A stretch of DNA of 12,899 bases from a bacterium (GTDB lineage Bacteria; SZUA-182; DTGQ01): assembly GCA_040752695.1 (NCBI GenBank), contig JBFMGO010000140.1:1-12899 (forward strand), written 5' to 3'. This document shows positions 1,017 through 11,963 of this stretch, in pieces (within the stretch, counting starts at the first letter, position 1; each line of letters opens with the position of its first letter). The position numbers and the translations under genes were made by a program. The notes beneath the pieces are model-generated. The model worked only from the letters and a program-made list of their open reading frames with translations, was not told the origin of the DNA and ran no database searches.

Positions 1017-1436
1017 GACAAGTCACGGGATCATCCAATTATTCATGTGAATTTTCCCGTATGGAATTGGCTTCAGAAAACCTGCCAGATAGAGGAAGCT
1101 TCCGTATTTCCTTTTTCGATTTATTAGCTTCTCGACAGTGATAAGTTCTCAAAGGAAGCTGACCTTTTGAAATTGGCCAAAGTCCATAGATCGAGATTCC
1201 CTAAAAGCGAATTAAAGCATGAGTCGCATGGGTATTGACTTTGCCTAAATTAAAAAGTCCGCCAATACAAGGACAGGTGTTTTTTGCTATGCCCTTATTT
1301 TTGCCAGTCGGTCTCATTTTTGAGACCTGTTTCAGAACTTTTAACTGTCGAGTTAGCTTTTATCACAAATTTAGTGAACCGGCAGGAGGAGAAAGCCGAA
1401 TAATGGGATGGTCCTTTCCATAAAGCATGAGATAAA

Positions 1437-1465
1437 TATTGCATTCTTTTTCATACTATGCAATA
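1437..1465. promoter_or_regulatory. Inverted repeat, candidate upstream activator site
   Basis: TATTGCAT-N13-ATGCAATA lies about 100-125 bp upstream of the -24 element and is separated from it by an AT-rich tract (~1470-1560). Confidence 0.4.
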
Positions 1466-1558
1466 CAATTCAATATTTGGCTATTTTATTTTTTAATTAA
1501 TTAAGTATAAATATAATAATTTATATTATATAAAAATTAAATAAAAATACATAAAAAA

Positions 1559-1576
1559 TTGGCATGATCTTTGCAT
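1559..1576 (+). promoter_or_regulatory. Candidate sigma-54 (-24/-12) promoter of the RiPP operon
   Basis: TTGGCATGATCTTTGCAT has GG (1561-1562), exactly 10 nt, then GC (1573-1574). This closely matches TGGCAC-N5-TTGC. It lies directly after a very AT-rich tract and upstream of the first gene. Confidence 0.7.
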
Positions 1577-1755
1577 AAATTTTTACTGTATCTTATTAAG
1601 CGATGCTCTGCCTGATCAAACCATTGAAGAGATATTGCTGGTTACTCACTACTTCTAAGGATCCGTACCAGTATTCTTCATTTTTGTCACAATCTATCGA
1701 AACATTCTGTCCTATCCTTGTTGTCTTTGATAAAAAAATAGGAGGAATTGATAAG

Positions 1756-1944
1756 ATGACCAAAGCTCATAGATCAATCTTTCGTGAGAGTGCTCTGCAG
1801 CGCTATATGCAAGGTAAGGGTCAACCAGTGTTACCACGGTTTATCTCCCAGCGCATCTTCATTTGGCTGTGGACCTTGCTTGGACTTCTGTTGGTTAGTG
1901 GGGTTATTGTCTCACTAATGATTATAGGACAGCTTGGGGTATAG
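1756..1944 (+). CDS. Small single-pass membrane protein resembling the N-terminus of bacteriocin-secretion HlyD-type accessory proteins (62 aa)
   Basis: GGAGG at 1741-1745 precedes ATG 1756, which is preferred over the 1603 start. The sequence SIFRESALQRY...VLPRFIS is followed by a hydrophobic helix (IFIWLWTLLGLLLVSGVIVSLMII). The stop lies 3 nt before the transporter ATG. Confidence 0.65.
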   Translation: MTKAHRSIFRESALQRYMQGKGQPVLPRFISQRIFIWLWTLLGLLLVSGVIVSLMIIGQLGV

Positions 1945-1947
1945 AAG

Positions 1948-4323
1948 ATGAGCAATTTCAATGCTACTCAAAATAGCCAGAAAGGAGAAGGGGAAGACCG
2001 GAAATCAGCAAGGATATGGCTGAGTGTTTTCTGCTCTCTGCCTTTTACCTTATGGGCTGCTCTGGCCGCTCTGCTTGTTCATCTACGCGGGCGTCGGGTT
2101 CCTGTCATACTTCAAATGAATGAGGTCGAATGCGGTGCCGCCTGCCTGGCCATGATCCTTAGTTTCTATGGCCGGAAGACGCCTATCTCGGAATGCCGCA
2201 CCTTGTATGGGACTAGCCGTAATGGTCTTACCGCCCAAGTCATTGCTACAGCGGCACGCCATTATGGATTTCGGGTAAAGGGGTTCTCAGTAGAGCTGAG
2301 TAATTTAAAACATATTCCTTTGCCTGCCATCATCCATTGGAACTTTAACCACTTTGTGGTGTTGGAACGATGGGTGCCCAGGAAAGCGGTGATTGTCGAT
2401 CCTGCTGCCGGACGCCGCCAATTGACAGCGGATGAATTTGACAGGGGCTTCACCGGAGTGGTATTGGTCATCGAGCCTGGTGTTGACTTTGAACAGTGCC
2501 GCTCATCAGCCCGACGGCCCATGTGGCGTACCTATTTGATGTCAATGCTGCGTACACCAGGTGCAATTGGCCTGATGACCCAGATTCTGACTGCCTCCCT
2601 ATGCTTGCAGGTTCTTGGGCTAGCCCTGCCAGCCCTCACCAAGGTACTTATGGACAAGGTTCTCCCATCCCACATTACCCATATTATGACGATCTTGGGG
2701 ATAGGGATGCTTATTTTGGCCCTGACCCAGGCGGTAACCAGTTATCTACGGTCTCTCCTGTTAATCTGTCTTCAGGCGCGTCTTGATTCACACATCATGC
2801 TTGGCTTCTTTGAGCATGTGCTCGGCCTCCCTTTCCAGTTTTTCCAGCAGCGAAGCAGCGGAGACCTGCTGATGCGGCTTAGCAGTAATATGACCATCCG
2901 TGAAATGCTCACCAGCCACACGGTATCTGTTATCCTGGATGGCGCTTTCGTGTCCGCGTATCTGGTCATTTTGCTCACTCAGGCACCCCTCTTTGGTTTG
3001 ATCGTCCTTGGGATAAGCCTGCTTCAGGTCGCACTGTTAGCGGGTACGGCCCGGCACATGCATGGCCTGACTCAGCGCAACCTCTCGGCCCAGGCAGAAT
3101 CACAGAGTTTTTTGGTCGAAACACTGACGGGGATGGTAACTTTGAAAGCAGCCGGCGGGGAAGATCGCGCTTTCGACCATTGGTCGAATCTGTTTATGAA
3201 CCAGTTGAATGTCTCTCTTCACCAAAGCCACTTTTCGGCGTTGATTGAAACAGCCCTAGTGACCCTGCGCACCCTTAGCCCTCTCCTGCTGCTATGGATT
3301 GGGGCAGGTTGGGTCCTGAATGGCAGCATGAGCCTTGGCACAATGCTGGCCCTGAACGCACTGGCCGCATCCACCATGTCGCCCCTAGCTACTCTGGTGG
3401 CAATGGGACAGCAATTACAGACAATCGGTGCTCACCTTGATCGGTTGGCTGACGTGATCGAGGCCGAGCCGGAGCAGGATGTGCAGGCAGTTCAAAAAGC
3501 GCCGCTGATCAGTGGCCGGATTGAAGTGAGAAACATGAGCTTTCGCTATGACCCCAATGGCCCCTGGGTGTTGCGCAACATCTCCTTCACGGTCGAGGCG
3601 GGACAGAAAATCGCTCTTGTCGGCCGCACCGGGTCGGGCAAGAGTACTCTGGCCATGCTCCTTCTGGGCCTGTATACGCCAAATGAAGGAGAGATTCTCT
3701 ATGATGGCATCTGCCTGCAACATCTGAACTACCGCGATCTCCGGAACCAGTTTGGAGTAGTGCTGCAAGAGCCATTCCTGTTCAGCGACTCCATTCGACG
3801 GAACATCGCCTTCAACAACCCCGGCCTCTCGTTTGAGCAAGTGACAGAGGCTGCTCAACTTGCTGCAATTCATGATGAGATTATGCAGATGCCCATGCAT
3901 TACGAGACAAAGATTGCGGAGGGAGGCAGCGGGCTGTCAGGCGGACAAAGACAGCGACTTTCCATTGCCCGGGCTCTGGCACACAAGCCTGCCATACTCC
4001 TGCTGGATGAGGCCACCAGCCACCTGGATACCGTCACCGAGCATCAGGTCGATAATAACCTGAGCCAGTTCGCCTGTACGCGGATCGTGATTGCGCACCG
4101 GCTGAGTACGATCCGCAACGCAGATATGATTCTGGTCCTCGATGAGGGAACCATAGTCGAGCAGGGCAGGCATGAGGAACTGGTGGCAGAAGGAGGACAT
4201 TACGCCGCTCTGGTGAATAGCCAGTTAGAAGATGAGGCCAGTGGCAGGGTCCCCGCTTCGAATGTTGAACAATCTGGTGCGTATAGTGTATTTTTCTCCC
4301 GTATTGGCGCTGAAAGGGGGTGA
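1948..4323 (+). CDS. lanT: Peptidase C39 domain-containing ABC transporter (PCAT, LanT-type)
   Basis: C39 motifs QMNEVECGAACL and HWNFNHFVV...VDP; multi-helix membrane domain; Walker A GRTGSGKST; signature LSGGQRQ; Walker B LLLDEATS; H-loop IAHRLST. Confidence 0.96.
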   Translation: MSNFNATQNSQKGEGEDRKSARIWLSVFCSLPFTLWAALAALLVHLRGRRVPVILQMNEVECGAACLAMILSFYGRKTPISECRTLYGTSRNGLTAQVIATAARHYGFRVKGFSVELSNLKHIPLPAIIHWNFNHFVVLERWVPRKAVIVDPAAGRRQLTADEFDRGFTGVVLVIEPGVDFEQCRSSARRPMWRTYLMSMLRTPGAIGLMTQILTASLCLQVLGLALPALTKVLMDKVLPSHITHIMTILGIGMLILALTQAVTSYLRSLLLICLQARLDSHIMLGFFEHVLGLPFQFFQQRSSGDLLMRLSSNMTIREMLTSHTVSVILDGAFVSAYLVILLTQAPLFGLIVLGISLLQVALLAGTARHMHGLTQRNLSAQAESQSFLVETLTGMVTLKAAGGEDRAFDHWSNLFMNQLNVSLHQSHFSALIETALVTLRTLSPLLLLWIGAGWVLNGSMSLGTMLALNALAASTMSPLATLVAMGQQLQTIGAHLDRLADVIEAEPEQDVQAVQKAPLISGRIEVRNMSFRYDPNGPWVLRNISFTVEAGQKIALVGRTGSGKSTLAMLLLGLYTPNEGEILYDGICLQHLNYRDLRNQFGVVLQEPFLFSDSIRRNIAFNNPGLSFEQVTEAAQLAAIHDEIMQMPMHYETKIAEGGSGLSGGQRQRLSIARALAHKPAILLLDEATSHLDTVTEHQVDNNLSQFACTRIVIAHRLSTIRNADMILVLDEGTIVEQGRHEELVAEGGHYAALVNSQLEDEASGRVPASNVEQSGAYSVFFSRIGAERG

Positions 4324-4465
4324 CGATGAAGGAACTAATGCGCTCTCAAGCCGGTTAAGAACAGCGGCAGGTCTATTGTGGCCTATTCGGCCATTGTAAC
4401 TAACTTTTATACAAAGGATGCTGTTCACAGGGGAAAAACTGTGAATAAGTAGTAAGGAGACAAAC

Positions 4466-4654
4466 ATGAAAGACGATAACCGTAGTATGCAAATGTCAGA
4501 CAAAAACAATAAACTTAAGCTGACTGAATTAGACTCGGATGATCTTGGTATTGTCAGTGGTGCAAGACCGCGGCAGTATCCATGCAGTTGCTGCTGCATG
4601 GGTGACAGCAATGTCTATTTCGATTCGGCTTACACTCCTTCTACGGCCTCATAA
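4466..4654 (+). CDS. RiPP precursor 1: double-glycine-type leader with Cys-rich core; probable radical SAM substrate (TIGR04149-like)
   Basis: RBS AAGGAG at 4454-4459. The leader ends ELDSDDLGIVSGA and the predicted core is RPRQYPCSCCCMGDSNVYFDSAYTPSTAS. It lies between the PCAT and the rSAM gene and is followed by a hairpin. Confidence 0.88.
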   Translation: MKDDNRSMQMSDKNNKLKLTELDSDDLGIVSGARPRQYPCSCCCMGDSNVYFDSAYTPSTAS

Positions 4655-4669
4655 AATGTGAACAATCAT

Positions 4670-4702
4670 ACCCTGGACATGTGTTTTTCACATGTCCAGG
4701 GT
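4670..4702 (+). terminator. Stem-loop after precursor 1 (attenuator or mRNA stabiliser)
   Basis: ACCCTGGACATGTG-TTTTT-CACATGTCCAGGGT: perfect 14-bp stem with a 5-nt loop and only a weak U tail. Confidence 0.75.
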
Positions 4703-4739
4703 GTTTCCTATCAGTGGAGGAGAGAGGAGAAGATAAGAT

Positions 4740-6269
4740 ATGTACAGTGCAATTGCCTTTAAGACCAAGAACAAGAGCACGTATTTCTTCGATATCAACA
4801 AGAACAGCCTCGTTCTCTGTCATCCGATCCTGTTCGAGATTGTACGCATGGGATCGCGAATGGCCAAGAGTGGAGAGATCCTCAGCGGCCCCTCCTGGAC
4901 AGATTCTCTTTCTCAAGGGGAGTTCGGTTCGGTACCTAGGGATATTCTCGCTTTCTATGTGGAGAAGTATAGGCTATTGCAGAAAAATGGTTACTTTAGA
5001 GAGGTCGACAAAAGCAGTAAAACTTACCGCATTTCGGCATATACTGTTCGTGATTCGCTTGCAAATACGCATCAAATCGTCTTCGAGGTAACGGGAAGGT
5101 GTAATCTATGCTGCGAATACTGTGGATACGGCGATCTTTATTCTCAGGTTGATAAAAAGAGGAGTACACGTAACCTCGACACAAAATCTGCCATGCGCCT
5201 CATTGATTACGTTTTAAAACTCGTTGTCTCTCCATACAATCACTCGGCTGATAAAAAACTTCATATCTCGTTCTACGGTGGAGAGCCTCTGTTGCGCATC
5301 GGATTCATAAAAGAAGTAGTAGACTATGTGCGATCGTGTATGGGACACGGGATTTCGCTTACGCTTGGAATGACGACGAACGGGACGTATCTTCGCAAGT
5401 ATTCGGATTATCTGGTAAAGAATAACTTTAATCTTCTCGTAAGCCTGGATGGAAATGAAAAGAACAACTCATACCGCCTGTTTCACAATGGCAAACCTTC
5501 CTTTCAGGTTGTTCTCCAAAACATCAAATATCTTGCCCGCACCTACCCACGATATTTCGAGAAGAGAGTGTCTTTCAATTCGGTGTTCAATGGCCGGAGC
5601 ACGTTGTCTGATGTCTGTGAATTCTTCAAATCCGAATTCAACATGAAGCCAAAGATAGCGGAGATTAACCTACATGGAATCTTGCAAAGCAAAAGAGCGA
5701 TCTTCGAAAAGATGTACAAAAGTGTCGTGGATGCTTTGACTGAAGAGGCTGAAGGTGAGCGCTATGAAGAGGAGATGCCTTCTGTATTTCCAAGGACAAA
5801 CACCGCTATCAGATTCGTTCACCGGTGTAATAGCGCTATGTTTGAGGACTATGACGACCTCCTCGATCCGGTCGATAATAGATCGAGCTATATCACGGGA
5901 ACGTGCCTGCCGTTTGCGAAAAAGATCTTCCTCTCGGCGGGCAGGAACATCTTGCCATGTGAAAAAGTATCGCAGGAATTCGTTCTGGGAAAGGTTGAGG
6001 ATTCGGGAGAGGTAGCTATCGACTTCGAAAGTATCGCTGCACTATATAATGGATATTACAGGAAAATAGAGGAGTTATGCAGCAATTGTTACAATCTCCT
6101 CTGTCCCCAATGCCTGTTTCGAATGAATATCCAGGATGAACGTGTTGGCTGTCAAGATTTTCTGGCCCTTGACGGGGCCGCAAAGCGGCTTGCATCTATT
6201 GTGGGTTATTTCGAGGATCGTGGTCCAGCCTTATACAACAAGTTCATAAAGGAGGTTTGGATTGAATAG
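4740..6269 (+). CDS. Radical SAM/SPASM peptide maturase (resembles the GG-Bacteroidales family TIGR04148)
   Basis: FEVTGRCNLCCEYCGYG (CxxxCxxC), FYGGEPL, TTNG and SLDG motifs. C-terminal Cys set: GTCLPF...LPCEKV...CSNCYNLLCPQC...C. An N-terminal extension of ~110 aa may be an RRE. Confidence 0.92.
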   Translation: MYSAIAFKTKNKSTYFFDINKNSLVLCHPILFEIVRMGSRMAKSGEILSGPSWTDSLSQGEFGSVPRDILAFYVEKYRLLQKNGYFREVDKSSKTYRISAYTVRDSLANTHQIVFEVTGRCNLCCEYCGYGDLYSQVDKKRSTRNLDTKSAMRLIDYVLKLVVSPYNHSADKKLHISFYGGEPLLRIGFIKEVVDYVRSCMGHGISLTLGMTTNGTYLRKYSDYLVKNNFNLLVSLDGNEKNNSYRLFHNGKPSFQVVLQNIKYLARTYPRYFEKRVSFNSVFNGRSTLSDVCEFFKSEFNMKPKIAEINLHGILQSKRAIFEKMYKSVVDALTEEAEGERYEEEMPSVFPRTNTAIRFVHRCNSAMFEDYDDLLDPVDNRSSYITGTCLPFAKKIFLSAGRNILPCEKVSQEFVLGKVEDSGEVAIDFESIAALYNGYYRKIEELCSNCYNLLCPQCLFRMNIQDERVGCQDFLALDGAAKRLASIVGYFEDRGPALYNKFIKEVWIE

Positions 6270-7530
6270 CGTGTCTGGTTGGATTGTCATTGATCCTTTT
6301 GTCCATATCGCAGTAAAGGGCGACTCATGTCTCCTTTATAATCCGCTCAATGGCAAGATACTAGAGTATGGAGATTCGCTGGTCGTCGAACTGGTCCGCG
6401 ATTTAACTTCTCCTGAGAATCTTCTTATCAAAAGGATTTCTTTAAAGGATCGTGCGCTCCCTTTATCAGTATTCGGCTTTATCGAAGATCTGCGCTCTGC
6501 GTTTATGGGAGATTTTATCGAGGCAGACGCCTCGGCGGTTCGTCCCATTCAGTTCCCTCCCGTCGTTCAGGTAACGAGAGCTGTCGAATACATCAGGAGC
6601 GATGAGAACCGTTCGGTCGGTGAGTTTGCTGTAAAGTATTTGAATAGACTTTTAGTTTATGTAAACAGCGATTGCAATTTCGACTGTGATCTCTGCAAGT
6701 CTGCTTATAAACAAATCAATTGGTGTACGAAGGCAAACCAGGGGACACTTGATATCGCGGTTCTGAAATCAGCAGTCGAGAGCATTAATTGCGCTCGCCT
6801 GCGATCGATCAGTATACTCGGTGGAGACATCCTTTCTTATCCCCATATCGAGGAGCTATCCAGATTCCTTGGGAAGAAGCCCACCCATAAAATATATTAT
6901 TTACACTGCGAGAATCTCATCCGCAGCGATAAGTGTTTGCGCACCCTCGAATTGCAGGGTTCAAGGCTTTGCGTCCTTGCCACCCCGCAGGTGACAAGAC
7001 CGGATCTATCCAGGGCAAGCCAATCGCTTAGAGATCTGCAGATAGATCACGAGTGGCTTATTGCGGTCCGTAGTGATAAAGAGTTCCTTGAGATAAGGAG
7101 CGTGTTCGAGTCCCTGAAGATTACGAATTATAGGATAATGCCCTGGTTCAATGGTCTTAATATCGAATTCTTCGAGGAGATGGTCTTCATCGATGTGGAT
7201 GATCTTGCTCGCTCGGGCGTTTCCATGAAGGAAATATTTGCCCACCAACGATTGAACAAGAGGGATTTTGGCAGGCTGATTATTCTCTCAAATAGTGACG
7301 TGCATGGCAATGTGAACCATCACAGGCTAGCTCGACTTGGGGAGCAGACCATAGATGATGCGTTGCTCGAGGAAATGCGATCGGGCCAGAGCTGGTTTAG
7401 GGTAAGAGGAAAACTTGTTCCTTGTCGCGACTGCCTCTTCGAGGCACTCTGCCCGCCACCATCGAACTATGAGATCGCGATCGGGAGAAATAACTTATGC
7501 CATATATGGGATAATCACCAACCTCCTTAA
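6262..7530 (+). CDS. Pseudo-radical-SAM/SPASM partner protein (TIGR04150-like)
   Basis: TTG start with AAGGAGG RBS (6249-6255), overlapping the upstream gene by 8 nt. Motifs: N-terminal LLYNPLNG; CNFDCDLC-x9-C; degenerate GGD in place of GGEP; C-terminal CRDCLFEALCPPPSNYEIAIGRNNLCHI. Confidence 0.85.
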   Translation: MNSVSGWIVIDPFVHIAVKGDSCLLYNPLNGKILEYGDSLVVELVRDLTSPENLLIKRISLKDRALPLSVFGFIEDLRSAFMGDFIEADASAVRPIQFPPVVQVTRAVEYIRSDENRSVGEFAVKYLNRLLVYVNSDCNFDCDLCKSAYKQINWCTKANQGTLDIAVLKSAVESINCARLRSISILGGDILSYPHIEELSRFLGKKPTHKIYYLHCENLIRSDKCLRTLELQGSRLCVLATPQVTRPDLSRASQSLRDLQIDHEWLIAVRSDKEFLEIRSVFESLKITNYRIMPWFNGLNIEFFEEMVFIDVDDLARSGVSMKEIFAHQRLNKRDFGRLIILSNSDVHGNVNHHRLARLGEQTIDDALLEEMRSGQSWFRVRGKLVPCRDCLFEALCPPPSNYEIAIGRNNLCHIWDNHQPP

Positions 7531-7762
7531 GCATTTTGCGATCGACGTATTCTATGAACTTGCCTCGACTTTCAGTTGAGACGACGATGGGTTTCATGCT
7601 TCAGATAGCTTTCGGATTTTTCGCAGACAGCAAGATGCAGATACTACCACAATTCTAAATGCAGCGATTTTCAGATGCTCTGGGTTACCCAATTCCTGGA
7701 ATTTTTAGACTATTTTGGGGGATCAATGAAGATGATTATGAGTGTGTGATAAATACGAGGGA

Positions 7763-7802
7763 CTGCCTTGAAGCTCTTTGCCGGCAAAGAGCTTCAAGGC
7801 AG
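7763..7802. repeat. Perfect 40-bp palindrome upstream of lanA
   Basis: CTGCCTTGAAGCTCTTTGCC is followed immediately by its exact reverse complement GGCAAAGAGCTTCAAGGCAG. The ORF track shows the same peptide CLEALCRQRASRQ on both strands here. Confidence 0.95.
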
Positions 7803-7859
7803 GTCCAGGATGGCCTGTCAGGCCACCGGAAGTCTAAAGAAAGAAAGGAGGTGAACGAA

Positions 7860-8084
7860 ATGTCGAAGGTAGATATCATTCGTGCCTGGAAAGACGAGGA
7901 GTATCGGTTGAGTCTGAGTGATGCCGAGCAGGCCATGTTACCGGCCAACCCGGCAGGCATCATCGAACTGACAGGAACGGAGTTGGATATTGTTGGAGGG
8001 GCAAGACCTAACTTATCAGCAGCTACGACATGCTATCATGGTTTTTGTTCTAATTTTTGTAGTGCTGCTCCACCATGGTGTTAA
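7860..8084 (+). CDS. lanA: RiPP precursor 2: mersacidin/lichenicidin-family class II lanthipeptide precursor (74 aa)
   Basis: RBS AAGGAGGTG at 7845-7853 precedes ATG 7860. The leader DIIRAWKDEEYRLSLS...LPANPAGIIEL...IVGGA is characteristic. The core RPNLSAATTCYHGFCSNFCSAAPPWC has 4 Cys and 5 Ser/Thr. It is adjacent to lanM. Confidence 0.95.
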   Translation: MSKVDIIRAWKDEEYRLSLSDAEQAMLPANPAGIIELTGTELDIVGGARPNLSAATTCYHGFCSNFCSAAPPWC

Positions 8085-8129
8085 ATGAAATACGTTCTAC
8101 ACGACGCGTCGGCATATATCCTTTCAGAG

Positions 8130-8154
8130 GGGGTGGATCATTTTGATCCACCCC
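8130..8154 (+). terminator. Stem-loop between lanA and lanM
   Basis: GGGGTGGATCA-TTT-TGATCCACCCC: 11-bp perfect stem with no U tract, so more likely a stabiliser or attenuator than a true terminator. Confidence 0.65.
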
Positions 8155-8310
8155 ATAAAGGGGTAAATACTAGGTCCTGCCTTGCTCTTTTGCCTGCAGG
8201 AGCAGCGGGAGGGCCCACGGTGTCCTTATCCGGTCCTCAGCGGCTCACACCATGTATGGGTAATATCAACAAGTATAAATACACCTCACCTGCATATAAG
8301 GGATTGATAT

Positions 8311-11300
8311 ATGGATAGTATAAGCAAGAGATCTTTTCAGGCTCCTGAGTGGTACCAGGCTTTCACCTTAAAGGAACGTAGAGCTTCACTGGTTGCTGCT
8401 CAGCATACAGAGCCCAAGGTTAAAATAGATGCTGATCTGGCAGAGCGAAAAATGCGTCGCTGGCGGTCACAACCGCCATTTACGACAGGTTCCTTCTTTA
8501 CCCGGCGATTGGAAATGGAAACTCTTACCGAGGACGAATTCCTCCATTTTCTCGGCGAGCCCATCGAAGCTGTCCGCGACCGTTTTCCGGCCATCCCGGG
8601 ATGGCTTGCTAAGTTGACTCAGGCATTTTCCCACCCACCGACATCAGAGCCGCTGCCACTTCCGGAGGAACTCCGGAAGCAGCCTGAAGCAGGGTTCCTG
8701 GCTGCAATAGCGCCGCTCATCCACCAGGGCCGTGACTTCCTACGTCAGGGCATACAAAGCATCTCCCAGACACGATACGATCTGCCCTTCGATCCCGGCA
8801 CAATCGAAGATATCCTCTTGGCAAATCTACCGTATCAATTGATCATGATGATAAGCCGTACTATGGTTCTGGAATTAAATATAGCCCGTCTCCAAGGGCT
8901 TTTACCTGGAGATACTGCTGAGGAACGCTTTTGCAGTTTCCTGGAGCGGATATGCCAGCCCGACCTTGTGCTCGCCATCTTCCATGAGTATCCTGTCCTG
9001 GCGCGTCAACTTGTTGAACATATCGATATTTGGGCCAATCTTAGCCTCGAATTTCTCCGTCACCTGTGCTCCGATTGGGATGAGATCAGGACCACCTTCA
9101 GCCCAGGGAGTGATCCGGGTGTGCTTATACAGGTTAAGGGTCATGCGGGCGACAGTCATCGGGGCGGGCGATCGGTATTAATAACCACATTCAGATCCGG
9201 CCTTAAGATAGTCTATAGACCGAAATCGCTGGCTGTGGACGTGCACTTTCAGGAGCTATTAGCCTGGCTCAATGAGCATGGTGATCATCCGCCATTCCGG
9301 GCGATCAAAATCCTCAATTGTGGTCTCTATGGCTGGGTCGAATTCGTGGCTGCCGAAAGCTGCACCTCTCAAGAAGAGATCAAGCGTTTCTATATACGTC
9401 AGGGTAGTTATCTGGCGCTGCTCTATGCACTGAAGGCAACCGATTTTCACTTTGAGAACCTCATAGCTGCGGGAGAGCATCCTGTTTTGGTCGATCTGGA
9501 GACGCTCTTTCATTCATCTATCCATAAAATTGATCCAAGACAATCGAATCAACTTGCTGGCAATACACTCTATCACTCCGTTTTGAGCATTGGCTTGCTG
9601 CCTCAGCGTACCTGGGCTAATGAAGAATCTGAAGGTATTGATTTAAGCGGTCTGGGTGGTACAGGCGGCCAGATCACGCCCTTTGGTGTCCCGCAATGGG
9701 AAAACGCGGGTAAAGATGAAATGCGGCTGATCCGAAAGCGGATACCTCTCTCAGGGCAGCAGAATCGACCGACCTTGAATGGTACCGAGGTCTGTGTTCA
9801 AGATTATACAGAGGAAATCATAGCTGGATTCACCAATATGTATCATTTGCTGCTGAGGCACTATCAGGAACTCTTATCGGATAACGGTCCCTTGACCCAC
9901 TTTGCAGAGGACGAAGTGCGTGTCATTCTTCGCTCCACACAGACCTATTATAGGTTACTTTATGCAAGTTTTCACCCCGATGTCCTGAGAAATGCTCTGG
10001 ACCGTGACCGCCTGTTTGACCGGCTCTGGGTCAGCGTCGAGCAGATTCCCAATTTAGCTAGAGTGATTCGGGCAGAGTGTGAAGACCTGCGGAAAGGCGA
10101 TATTCCATTCTTCAGTACACGGCCTGGTTCGTGTGACCTGTGGAGCAGCGCAGGTGAACGCATCGCTGACTTCTTTGACGAACCAGGTCTGAGCCTGGCC
10201 CGACGCAGGCTGCAAGGACTGAGTGAGGACAATCTTAGCCAGCAGCTCTGGTTTATCCGTGCCTCATTGGCTACGCTATCCATATCTACAATATCCATGA
10301 ATGCGAGTCGCGTACAGCGGCCCAATTATCATCCCACTGAATCGCAGTCTCCGGCAGACCGCGATCGGCTCCTGACTGCAGCCCAAGCCATTGGCGATCA
10401 GCTGGAGAGGCTGGCTCTTCGTGGCGAGCATGACGTTTCCTGGATTGGCTTGACGATAAGCAAGGACCGGTATTGGGCCCTCCTGCCTGCAGGAGTAGAC
10501 CTTTATGATGGCCTGGCGGGAATTGCTTTCTTCCTGGCGTATTTGGGGAAGATCACCCGGCAGGCCCGGTATACGGAACTTGCCCAGGTCACTCTGGCGA
10601 CCTTACGAAACCAGGTGACGAACAATCAGTCATTCATCACCTCAATTGGTGGCTATAGTGGCTGGGGCGGGATCATCTACACCCTCACTCATCTGGGTTC
10701 ACTCTGGGATCAGCCCTCATTGCTCGATGAGGCTGAAGCCATAGTAAAATTGCTGCCGCCGCTCATCGAAAAGGACGAGAGCCTGGATGTAATCGCTGGT
10801 GCGGCTGGATGCATTGCCAGCTTAGCCTGCCTGCTTCGCTGCAGGCCATCCCCAGATACGCTGGCAGCAGCTATCCAGTGTGGTGAGCGGCTCCTGGCCT
10901 GTGCCCAATCCATGGAGCAGGGCAGGGCCTGGACCATCACTATGTGGACAAAACCGCTGGCTGGATTCTCGCATGGCGCTGGTGGCATAGCCTGGGCACT
11001 GCTGGAGTTAGCCTCGCTGACGGGTGAGAAGCGCTTCAGGGCAATGGCGCTTGAGGCTATTGCTTACGAACGCAGCCTCTTTGACCCCAAGGAAGGGAAT
11101 TGGCAAGACGTGCGCGAGATGGAAATAGCAAACCAGGCAGCGAATGGCCATCAAGCCAGCTTTATGTCCGCCTGGTGCCACGGTGCGCCCGGCATAGGCA
11201 TGGCTCGCCTGAGTTCTCTCAAGTACATGGATGATCCTGCGATCCGTGAGGAAATCGATATAGCCCTTAAGACCACTCTGTCAAAAGGATTTGGCTTTAA

Positions 11301-11583
11301 TCACTCGTTGTGTCACGGCGATTTAGGCAATCTTGAATTGCTGCTGCTGGCCAATGAAACTCTGGAAGATGGCGAACAGTGGCGCGACCAGGCATACCGC
11401 ATCGCTGCCATTATCCTTGAGAGCATTAACCGGGATGGATGGATTTGCGGGGTCCCCTTAAGGGTTGAAGTGCCCGGGCTTATGACTGGCATAGCGGGCA
11501 TTGGCTACGAACTGCTGCGCCTGGCAGAGCCAGCCCGCGTACCGTCAGTGCTCGTGCTTGCACCGCCGCTTAAACGTTCATGA
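8311..11583 (+). CDS. lanM: Class II lanthipeptide synthetase LanM
   Basis: Dehydratase (DUF4135-type) motifs EYPVLAR, GDSHRGG, KIVYRPK, DFHFENLIA, VDLETLF and RVILRST. LanC cyclase motifs LYDGLAG, GFSHGAGG, WCHGAPG and LCHGDLG. Length 1090 aa. Confidence 0.98.
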   Translation: MDSISKRSFQAPEWYQAFTLKERRASLVAAQHTEPKVKIDADLAERKMRRWRSQPPFTTGSFFTRRLEMETLTEDEFLHFLGEPIEAVRDRFPAIPGWLAKLTQAFSHPPTSEPLPLPEELRKQPEAGFLAAIAPLIHQGRDFLRQGIQSISQTRYDLPFDPGTIEDILLANLPYQLIMMISRTMVLELNIARLQGLLPGDTAEERFCSFLERICQPDLVLAIFHEYPVLARQLVEHIDIWANLSLEFLRHLCSDWDEIRTTFSPGSDPGVLIQVKGHAGDSHRGGRSVLITTFRSGLKIVYRPKSLAVDVHFQELLAWLNEHGDHPPFRAIKILNCGLYGWVEFVAAESCTSQEEIKRFYIRQGSYLALLYALKATDFHFENLIAAGEHPVLVDLETLFHSSIHKIDPRQSNQLAGNTLYHSVLSIGLLPQRTWANEESEGIDLSGLGGTGGQITPFGVPQWENAGKDEMRLIRKRIPLSGQQNRPTLNGTEVCVQDYTEEIIAGFTNMYHLLLRHYQELLSDNGPLTHFAEDEVRVILRSTQTYYRLLYASFHPDVLRNALDRDRLFDRLWVSVEQIPNLARVIRAECEDLRKGDIPFFSTRPGSCDLWSSAGERIADFFDEPGLSLARRRLQGLSEDNLSQQLWFIRASLATLSISTISMNASRVQRPNYHPTESQSPADRDRLLTAAQAIGDQLERLALRGEHDVSWIGLTISKDRYWALLPAGVDLYDGLAGIAFFLAYLGKITRQARYTELAQVTLATLRNQVTNNQSFITSIGGYSGWGGIIYTLTHLGSLWDQPSLLDEAEAIVKLLPPLIEKDESLDVIAGAAGCIASLACLLRCRPSPDTLAAAIQCGERLLACAQSMEQGRAWTITMWTKPLAGFSHGAGGIAWALLELASLTGEKRFRAMALEAIAYERSLFDPKEGNWQDVREMEIANQAANGHQASFMSAWCHGAPGIGMARLSSLKYMDDPAIREEIDIALKTTLSKGFGFNHSLCHGDLGNLELLLLANETLEDGEQWRDQAYRIAAIILESINRDGWICGVPLRVEVPGLMTGIAGIGYELLRLAEPARVPSVLVLAPPLKRS

Positions 11584-11710: not shown

Positions 11711-11748
11711 TAACCACAACGCAAAAATGTAACCACAACGCAAAAATG
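11711..11748 (+). repeat. Perfect 19-bp tandem duplication
   Basis: TAACCACAACGCAAAAATG occurs twice, at 11711-11729 and 11730-11748. Confidence 0.92.
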
Positions 11749-11892
11749 AACGTTCGTTTTTATTGCCCTTCTAAATAGATGAAACCGATTGACTAACTTC
11801 TAACTACAGTGAAAAAATAATTCTTTTTTGACCTATACTTTTGCACTTTTTAGCAACTGATTGGTGTACCTATAGTTTCGTAATGTCTACCC

Positions 11893-11963
11893 GTCATTTT
11901 CGCGAAGGCTTAGAATCCAGGTTTTTCAAGAGCTTCTGGATTCTAAGCCTTCGCCGGAATGAC
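11893..11963. repeat. REP-like long inverted repeat of the GTCATT...GAATCCAG / CTGGATTC...AATGAC type
   Basis: 28-bp arms at 11893-11920 and 11936-11963, 25 of 28 positions complementary, with a 15-nt spacer. Confidence 0.8.

Follow-up and report, generated by a model that had tools for sequence, protein, structure and literature searches.

How do two precursor peptides that belong to different families of peptides that are made ribosomally and modified after translation (RiPPs) come to share a cleavage junction within one gene cluster? The question is raised by contig JBFMGO010000140.1 of the bacterial assembly GCA_040752695.1, a stretch of 12,899 nt that was analysed whole and is called the window here (contig C140 of the host genome, G000). 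All genes of its cluster lie on one strand (+), in the order 62-aa open reading frame (ORF), C39 peptidase-ABC transporter (PCAT), precursor 1, radical S-adenosylmethionine (rSAM) protein of TIGR04148, pseudo-rSAM protein of TIGR04150, precursor 2 (TIGR03898) and lanthipeptide synthetase LanM. Precursor 1 (4466..4654; 62 aa, AAGGAG 7 nt upstream) has a 33-aa leader of the double-Gly type, followed by a predicted core of 29 aa with four Cys and seven Ser/Thr. Precursor 2 (7860..8084; 74 aa) is a LanA of the mersacidin/lichenicidin type (TIGR03898, 65.7 bits against a cut-off of 23.5), adjoins LanM, and has four Cys and five Ser/Thr in its core. The original prediction held that two unrelated precursors carry an identical junction, either by co-adaptation to one PCAT or by shuffling of leader segments. 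We lean towards the explanation that precursor 1 inherited its cut-site segment through an old recombination with a sister lanA copy, and that one PCAT, as predicted, cuts both peptides after Gly-Ala.

The two motifs, ELDSDDLGIVSGARP at 4526-4570 in precursor 1 and ELTGTELDIVGGARP at 7965-8009 in precursor 2, span positions -13 to +2 around the predicted cut and place GARP at 4559-4570 and 7998-8009. They align without gaps, with identities at 9/15 positions overall and 6/7 over -5..+2. The shared junction thus stands as first proposed, in position and register, although the word identical slightly overstated it, as -3 differs. The cores of the two peptides do not align (378/500 shuffles score as high). 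Several residues common to both junctions are rare in the LanA family: Ile-5 occurs in 2/104 sequences, Ala-1 in 14, Arg+1 in 7 and Pro+2 in 11. The junction DNA is similar as well (17/21 matches), as had been claimed, though 56 families of short repeats, this one included, occur within 1400-8400; the match is only mildly above expectation given the proteins (P about 0.03) and adds little.

These counts rest on two comparison sets. The LanA set was drawn from 119 other matches listed of 216 precursor 2 homologues; 118 could be anchored, and 104 were kept after dropping duplicates and seven sequences without GG or GA in register. The first rSAM-type set comprised 70 precursors obtained from loci by a motif filter, with two atypical ones left out (62 unique). 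A nearest-subfamily set (n = 36), mostly from the class of genome G1257, brought the total to 93, and a profile search yielded 148 further matches among 446, of which 137 were placeable, 129 were new and served as a held-out set, and 11 were read by eye; the search profile itself contained precursor 1. Among the 23,088 cross-family pairs (104 LanA by 222 rSAM-type), 28 reach 9/15 and three reach 6/7, and 894/5,356 LanA-LanA pairs reach 9/15. Precursor 1 matches its neighbour better than it matches any of the 104 other LanA sequences (their maximum is 8/15 and 4/7), and this test is conservative because the LanA set is biased towards precursor 2. The probability of at least 9/15 is ~1e-4 under rSAM-family frequencies. 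If precursor 1 is taken to be merely LanA-like it is 0.035, and that of at least 6/7 in any of three junction windows is 0.002; the -5..+2 window was picked after the fact, and the three windows allow for this choice. Judged by these frequencies, the junction match is real and goes beyond chance.

The resemblance of precursor 1 to LanA is confined to this stretch. Over -13..-1 its log-odds for LanA over rSAM-type are +14.1, +10.9 and +13.1 against the 62, the 36 nearest and the 93 rSAM-type precursors. Such LanA-likeness is matched by 0/222 rSAM-type precursors, neither the left-out (maximum +1.5, 0/93) nor the held-out ones (maximum +3.2, 0/129) reaching it. The segment has a net charge of -4 (LanA, -6..-1), while the charge is positive in 27/36 of the nearest rSAM-type precursors, and its residue -3 is Ser, which occurs there in 0/36, Lys or Arg being found in 27/36; the neutral-to-basic segment with a basic -3 that marks TIGR04149-like precursors is absent. 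Immediately upstream, at -18..-14 (4511..4525), stands KLKLT, the consensus of the 36 nearest-subfamily precursors, with log-odds of -15.2 towards the rSAM type (0/104 LanA as low); it directly adjoins -13, as in 13/36 of those precursors, and we infer that it is the recognition site of the rSAM pair. Downstream, the core contains the cysteine cluster CSCCC (4583..4597), which fits the rSAM type: an early CxCxC within the first 16 core residues is found in 44/62 rSAM-type precursors versus 4/104 LanA. By these residue preferences precursor 1 is a mosaic, rSAM-type at KLKLT, LanA-type over -13..+2 (4526..4570, predicted cut after 4564) and rSAM-type again at CSCCC.

Family assignment reflects this composition. 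Like a TIGR04149-type substrate, precursor 1 has a K[LI]KL[TN] motif, an early CxC cluster and a gene directly 5' of TIGR04148, and a profile built from rSAM-type precursors gives it 16.8 bits (7.0 at most for shuffles). No NCBIfam or Pfam family matched it, and TIGR04149 had no match in the contig at E<=10, so that its 25-bit cut-off was not reached; precursor 1 is therefore not filed as a member, though it would work like one. Nor is it filed as a LanA, because only -13..+2 is LanA-like: TIGR03898 gave no match at E<=0.1, and the W-K-D block (block score -12.4) and the P-x-x-P-x-G leader motif were not found. A direct homologue search returned precursor 1 as its sole candidate, and the ESM Atlas gave Bacteroidota clusters at 0.89-0.91, which we treat as a lead only. 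Precursor 1 also has 15 residues before -18, where 29/29 short-register rSAM-type precursors have 2-6; its first 12 residues (4466..4501) are missing in such short-leader precursors and align by BLASTP with LanA residues 10-21. Four sequences (P0020, P0022, P0041 and P0073) have LanA-family leaders with CxCxC or CSCCC cores much like the rSAM type, possibly a reciprocal chimera.

The claim that the sequences upstream of the junction are unrelated was not borne out, as the 5' intergenic regions of the two precursors share an element of ~80 nt. It precedes precursor 1 (copy A, decayed, 4342..4420), precursor 2 (copy B, 7746..7851) and lanM (copy C, 8160..8235), copies A and C having been aligned to B. 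The A-B alignment score of 49 was reached by 0/500 dinucleotide shuffles, and that of B-C (54.5) by 0/500 shuffles and 0/2,460 intergenic pieces of the genome; the A-C score is not significant (28/500 shuffles reach it). When the region from element to GARP, which includes the junction, is compared between the two sides, the score of 70 is reached by 0/1,500 random genome pieces. With this shared element and the mosaic leader, the description of the precursors as unrelated is probably wrong. No further copy was found genome-wide by blastn at E<=5, which speaks against a mobile repeat spread through the genome as the source. The element has no Rfam match and is not clearly present 5' of 14 lanA genes of the Chloroflexota phylum (best z 3.6, to copy B, unconvincing). 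Copy B folds strongly (z = -6.7) and contains a perfect, loopless 40-nt palindrome (7763-7802) that may act as an RNA-stabilising or processing stem before the lanA message. Strong hairpins also stand directly 3' of each precursor gene, at 4669-4702 between precursor 1 and the rSAM gene (z = -5.2, 0/200 shuffles; 14-bp stem) and at 8130-8154 (z -3.6), neither with a U tail on the coding strand; they could raise precursor RNA over enzyme RNA. A scan for promoters and terminators gave counts no different from shuffles.

Related loci suggest where the rSAM genes may have been inserted. In lanM locus records L286-L289 the order is PCAT, one to four lanA copies and lanM, without an rSAM pair, and the rSAM cassette of the window occupies the slot where these relatives carry tandem lanA copies. 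In L286 and L292 such tandem copies share 5-7/7 junction residues, and 6/9 pairs share upstream DNA; the copies of L287 are more diverged. The rSAM pair had no match in 38 lanM locus records, and neither LanM nor LanA had any in 154 rSAM locus records (these records overlap, and their flanks measure between a few and 10 kb). Searches for TIGR04148 in 41 genomes and for TIGR03898 in 20 turned up no hybrid cluster orthologous to this one. In the phylum to which G344 belongs, a Chloroflexota record, 15/401 genomes have LanA homologues. Identity to the closest rSAM homologues is only 35-41%, those with names belonging to Ca. Aminicenantes or being unclassified. Scanning genome contigs with the rSAM gave 58 loci, mostly with distant rSAMs; viral contigs gave 24 loci, and the motif filter found no precursor in the 16 inspected. 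Five genomes of the class of G1257 (G1369, G1385, G1405, G1415 and G1433) carry four to five TIGR04148 copies each, and most of the fetched flanks contain no C39 transporter.

The predicted cut after Gly-Ala depends on the PCAT (1948..4323; PF03412, PF00664 and PF00005), which is of the LanM-cluster type: it is 50-55% identical to PCATs of lanM clusters and at most 31.8% to those of rSAM clusters. Its C39, membrane and ATPase motifs are present and its catalytic triad (Cys62/His135/Asp151) is kept; among 12 PDB sequences its C39 domain is closest to LahT (6MPZ, E 1.7e-34). In the excerpted LahT study, cleavage depends on Leu-12, Leu-7 and Val-4 but not on charges at -3, -5 and -8, and the P' side is tolerant (PMC6363468). 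In the GA|RP register both precursors have the residues of PCAT substrates (Leu-12, Leu-7, Val/Ile-4, Gly-2 and Gly/Ala/Ser-1), with predicted cuts after 4564 and 8003, and the hydrophobic -12/-7/-4 pattern of LahT upholds the cut originally placed after GA in both. A G|A register is rejected, since Asp or Glu would then fall at -7, and Glu at -12, of either peptide.

Leader charge may have a counterpart in the C39 domain. The putative leader-binding helix was mapped to PCAT1 Ala55/Ile59 by PDB alignment, the numbering being shifted by three. The window PCAT and 7/7 lanM-cluster PCATs have Arg at position 104, where 30/31 rSAM-cluster PCATs have Glu; position 101 is Lys in 7/7 lanM-cluster PCATs and Asp or Glu in 27/31 of the others. 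Across residues 101, 104 and 111 (L286-L293 compared with the rSAM loci), the helix is basic in PCATs of lanM clusters and acidic in those of rSAM clusters, the reverse of the charge on their leaders. This contrast plausibly gives a reason to keep the acidic tract, and it is possible that it represents a general specificity code.

Conservation of Arg-Pro at +1/+2, to which the original prediction had looked for confirmation, is lacking in homologues: the pair occurs in 0/104 LanA, 0/93 locus-derived rSAM-type precursors and 2/148 further profile matches. Since neither family conserves it, RP is likelier to be a relic than a signal under selection. Xaa-Pro core starts as such are common (11/104 LanA, 4/36 nearest rSAM-type). 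Xaa-Pro blocks most aminopeptidases, yet aminopeptidase P and dipeptidyl peptidase IV act on it. GG|ARP starts occur in 3/104 LanA, two of which read ARPR, like precursor 1; loss of one Gly from GG|ARP might give GA|RP in register.

Of the two routes first proposed, the evidence favours segment shuffling or shared descent: the leader is a mosaic, an element is shared upstream, and the cassette sits in a slot for tandem lanA copies. Co-adaptation would explain an acidic -13..-1. It does not readily explain RP, because LahT tolerates the P' side and PCAT1 makes no specific cargo contacts in the excerpted text (PMC6959990), although MrsT, a PCAT of the same LanA family, is reported to discriminate at P1', cutting before Gly or Ala and not before Asp or Cys (PMC9127955). 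On the recombination that we favour, the ancestral cluster would have held at least two units of element plus lanA, the first of which would have received the rSAM cassette. The cassette precursor would then have acquired the resident cut site by recombination or conversion over a short tract, about 15 codons long, and a remnant of the old lanA start would have become the 12-residue extension. The event would be old, because synonymous sites have drifted. The tract would owe its retention to the resident C39 domain, whose helix is basic like that of LanM-type PCATs. In the present cluster, KLKLT would address the rSAM pair, and this pair would introduce cross-links into the Cys-rich core of precursor 1; the acidic segment would suit a C39 helix with Arg where rSAM-cluster PCATs have Glu; LanM would modify precursor 2; and RP would be a hitch-hiking relic of the LanA "GG-ARP" start, not a required signal. 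A bolder extension is that precursor 1 is a chimeric leader with three addresses (KLKLT for the rSAM pair, -13..+2 for PCAT and LanM), its core receiving radical-SAM cross-links as well as lanthionine chemistry. We consider this improbable, and the missing intact W-K-D block argues against LanM acting on precursor 1.

Several observations weigh against inheritance by recombination. It needs at least two breakpoints, and the case comes from a single genome without a replicate locus. Only 4/9 identical residues share a codon versus 2.6 expected (P = 0.24); recent gene conversion is rejected on this ground. The A-B element score is also reached by 4/2,460 intergenic pieces of the genome, the pair is too weak for genome-wide blastn at E<=5, and the stretches that separate element from junction cannot be aligned (268/500 shuffles as high). 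The LanA profile gives precursor 1 just 5.7 bits, a score reached by 25/62 rSAM-type precursors, and the LanA likeness of the extension is weak (shuffle P 0.012-0.027; 1/54 rSAM leaders scores higher). Acidic rSAM-type leaders occur natively, with a charge of -4 in 3/129 and KLKLT followed by an acidic -13..-1 in P0249, and GG|RP is found in P0294 and P0308 (the 2/148 above). The donor branch is unsampled, given rSAM identities of at most 41%. On the transporter side, position 101 of the window PCAT is Thr instead of the usual Lys, the charge contrast lies between two clades and therefore counts once, LahT tolerates Lys at -3, -5 and -8, so that no need for a swap is demonstrated (PMC6363468, in part), and the host genome has two other C39 transporters. 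P0249 is the closest natural parallel to precursor 1, and its neighbourhood could hold a LanM-type PCAT. A target-site duplication at GARP is rejected as an origin of the shared junction; its product would have the leader of precursor 1 on the core of precursor 2, and the leader middles differ.

Some of these points favour convergence, in which precursor 1 arrived whole with the cassette, point mutations made -13..-1 acidic for the resident PCAT, and Ile-5, Ala-1 and RP match by luck. Such a course would require no indel, since KLKLT abuts -13 in 13/36 nearest precursors as it does here. It would draw its selective reason from the C39 charge contrast, and it can live with 9/15 identities (P = 0.035 if precursor 1 is LanA-like) and with codon sharing no greater than chance. 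What makes us regard it as unlikely, if still a serious contender, is that the 6/7 junction match keeps P 0.002 even with three windows allowed for, that about eight substitutions separate the tract from the nearest native leader (L119), and that the upstream element and the unique extension need a separate cause. The latter two are independent signals that also burden the suggestion that precursor 1 comes from a branch of the rSAM precursor family that has acidic leaders and is not yet sampled, and that the match is a generic double-Gly motif plus coincidence among many windows. The distance of the closest rSAM homologues, the existence of P0249, the post hoc choice of -5..+2 and the fact that five of the nine identities (E, L, L, V and G) are motif positions lend this idea some weight; with 0/222 rSAM-type precursors as LanA-like and a probability of ~1e-4 under rSAM-family frequencies, we find it improbable.

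Selection on RP itself seems to us very improbable. Here the PCAT would prefer Arg-Pro at P1'-P2', or the cores, once exported, would depend on Xaa-Pro either to withstand a peptidase or to be trimmed by one. Discrimination by MrsT at P1' is consistent with the former, and two-step leader removal, reported as common in this LanA family (PMC10885120, in part), with the latter. The host is probably a diderm, because it has several TolC-family genes, and the cluster contains neither a full fusion protein nor TolC, so that the cores may meet periplasmic peptidases. Against this stand the tolerance of LahT, the closest solved C39 domain, at P', the absence of RP from the 104 LanA and 93 rSAM-type precursors, and the yield of the peptidase search, which found no peptidase gene in the contig and one weak, partial DPPIV_N match in the host genome.

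The remainder of the cluster agrees with known families. The rSAM protein (4740..6269) scores 412.6 bits on TIGR04148 (cut-off 300) and has CxxxCxxC at 121-128; its partner (6262..7530) scores 345.3 bits on TIGR04150 (cut-off 250), and the two adjacent genes, both above cut-off, make this a member of the cassette. The pseudo-rSAM retains CxxxCxxC at 138-145, and these Cys lie outside the near-invariant columns of its alignment. LanM (8311..11583) is a class II synthetase (TIGR03897, 1058 bits, cut-off 304) with the zinc-ligand motifs WCHG and CHG. The 62-aa ORF (1756..1944) is membrane-anchored, typical of the 5' ends of lanM clusters, and has homologues (35-47% over ~40 aa) 5' of the PCAT in 4/8 lanM loci; it is a short form of a ~190-aa accessory protein, which it matches at the N-terminus only, a 187-aa form being present in L287 and a 69-aa form in L290. 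PCAT and lanM have a GC fraction of 0.53-0.54, the rSAM pair one of 0.45-0.47, and the codon use of the rSAM gene is the farthest from that of the genome. TIGR03898 occurs in 1/20 genomes of the host phylum and TIGR04148 in 1/41 genomes sampled, in each case the host only, and SusD was not found in the host genome. On account of these base and codon contrasts, the rarity among sampled relatives and the lack of SusD, both the rSAM and the lanthipeptide module look acquired.

Mobile and repeated DNA flanks the cluster. A fragment of an IS1182 transposase (624-1016) sits upstream, a genome-wide repeat with copies on C8, C12 and C52 lies 3' of lanM (11730-11900), and an open-ended Cys-rich ORF at the contig end (12696-12899) presumably resembles an IS zinc ribbon. 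Elsewhere in the host genome, on contig C18 (L220:5522-13064), a Cys-free double-Gly peptide stands beside a TolC-family gene, a 1074-aa C39 transporter and a 546-aa gene; this transporter has Glu at the equivalent of position 104, and the peptide scores 22.7 bits on TIGR04149, below the cut-off.

RiPP pathways are thought to diversify mainly by variation of the core under a fixed leader. If a leader in nature switches sharply from the recognition segment of one family to that of another, it would show one way in which an incoming modification cassette plugs into a resident exporter, and it would mirror the designs of engineers; a 2026 review, in the part seen in excerpt, describes mix-and-match between maturation enzymes as not commonplace (PMC13500794). 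Although limited to one uncultured genome with no replicate, the locus offers in precursor 1 a clean test of PCAT specificity, namely whether it is set by the charge of the leader and the Arg/Glu position of C39. It is also a compact entry to the chemistry of TIGR04148/TIGR04150, for which our literature searches found no characterisation. If precursor 1 did carry three addresses, it would be a two-class hybrid RiPP made by a 15-codon recombination and caught in a single genome.

Comparison with known systems places each part of the cluster. Class II clusters of the mersacidin/lichenicidin family (TIGR03898, TIGR03897 and PCAT) share its order of short ORF, PCAT, lanA and lanM (L287, L288 and L293), its double-Gly leader and a PCAT of 50-55% identity; they differ in lacking the rSAM pair and second, mosaic precursor between PCAT and lanA, an arrangement seen in 0/38 lanM locus records. 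The GG-Bacteroidales radical-SAM cassette (TIGR04148, TIGR04150 and precursor TIGR04149) has the same order of precursor, rSAM and pseudo-rSAM, the KLKLT motif and a CxC core; its two enzymes are described as co-occurring, the pseudo-rSAM having no assigned function in the excerpts of PMC10352776 and PMC4573289. Here, in contrast, the precursor fails TIGR04149, is acidic over -13..-1 and carries an extension, the cassette has no Glu-type PCAT of its own, and the host is without SusD. The leader complexes of LahT150 and PCAT1, as described in part by PMC6363468 and PMC6959990, agree in the spacing of the catalytic triad and in substrates with Leu-12, Leu-7 and Val-4, but the several substrates of LahT are paralogues of one family, whereas one PCAT would here serve two enzyme classes. 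Bacteroidales clusters of rSAM, LanC and pseudo-rSAM genes (BGC3-5 of PMC10352776, in part) likewise set an rSAM pair beside lanthionine-synthetase-like genes; those are LanC-like proteins without LanB, while the window has a full LanM with its own LanA. Full-text literature searches returned neither a natural mosaic of this kind nor this cassette inside a lanM cluster; supplements, including that of PMC10352776, were outside their scope and could list such clusters. Engineered chimeric leader peptides (Burkhart et al. 2017, as cited in PMC11048544) come closest in design, combining recognition segments of two pathways in one leader, whereas precursor 1 is natural and its second segment would address the predicted protease-transporter. 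All parts of the locus thus appear to come from known families, and it is their arrangement and the mosaic leader that appear to be new.

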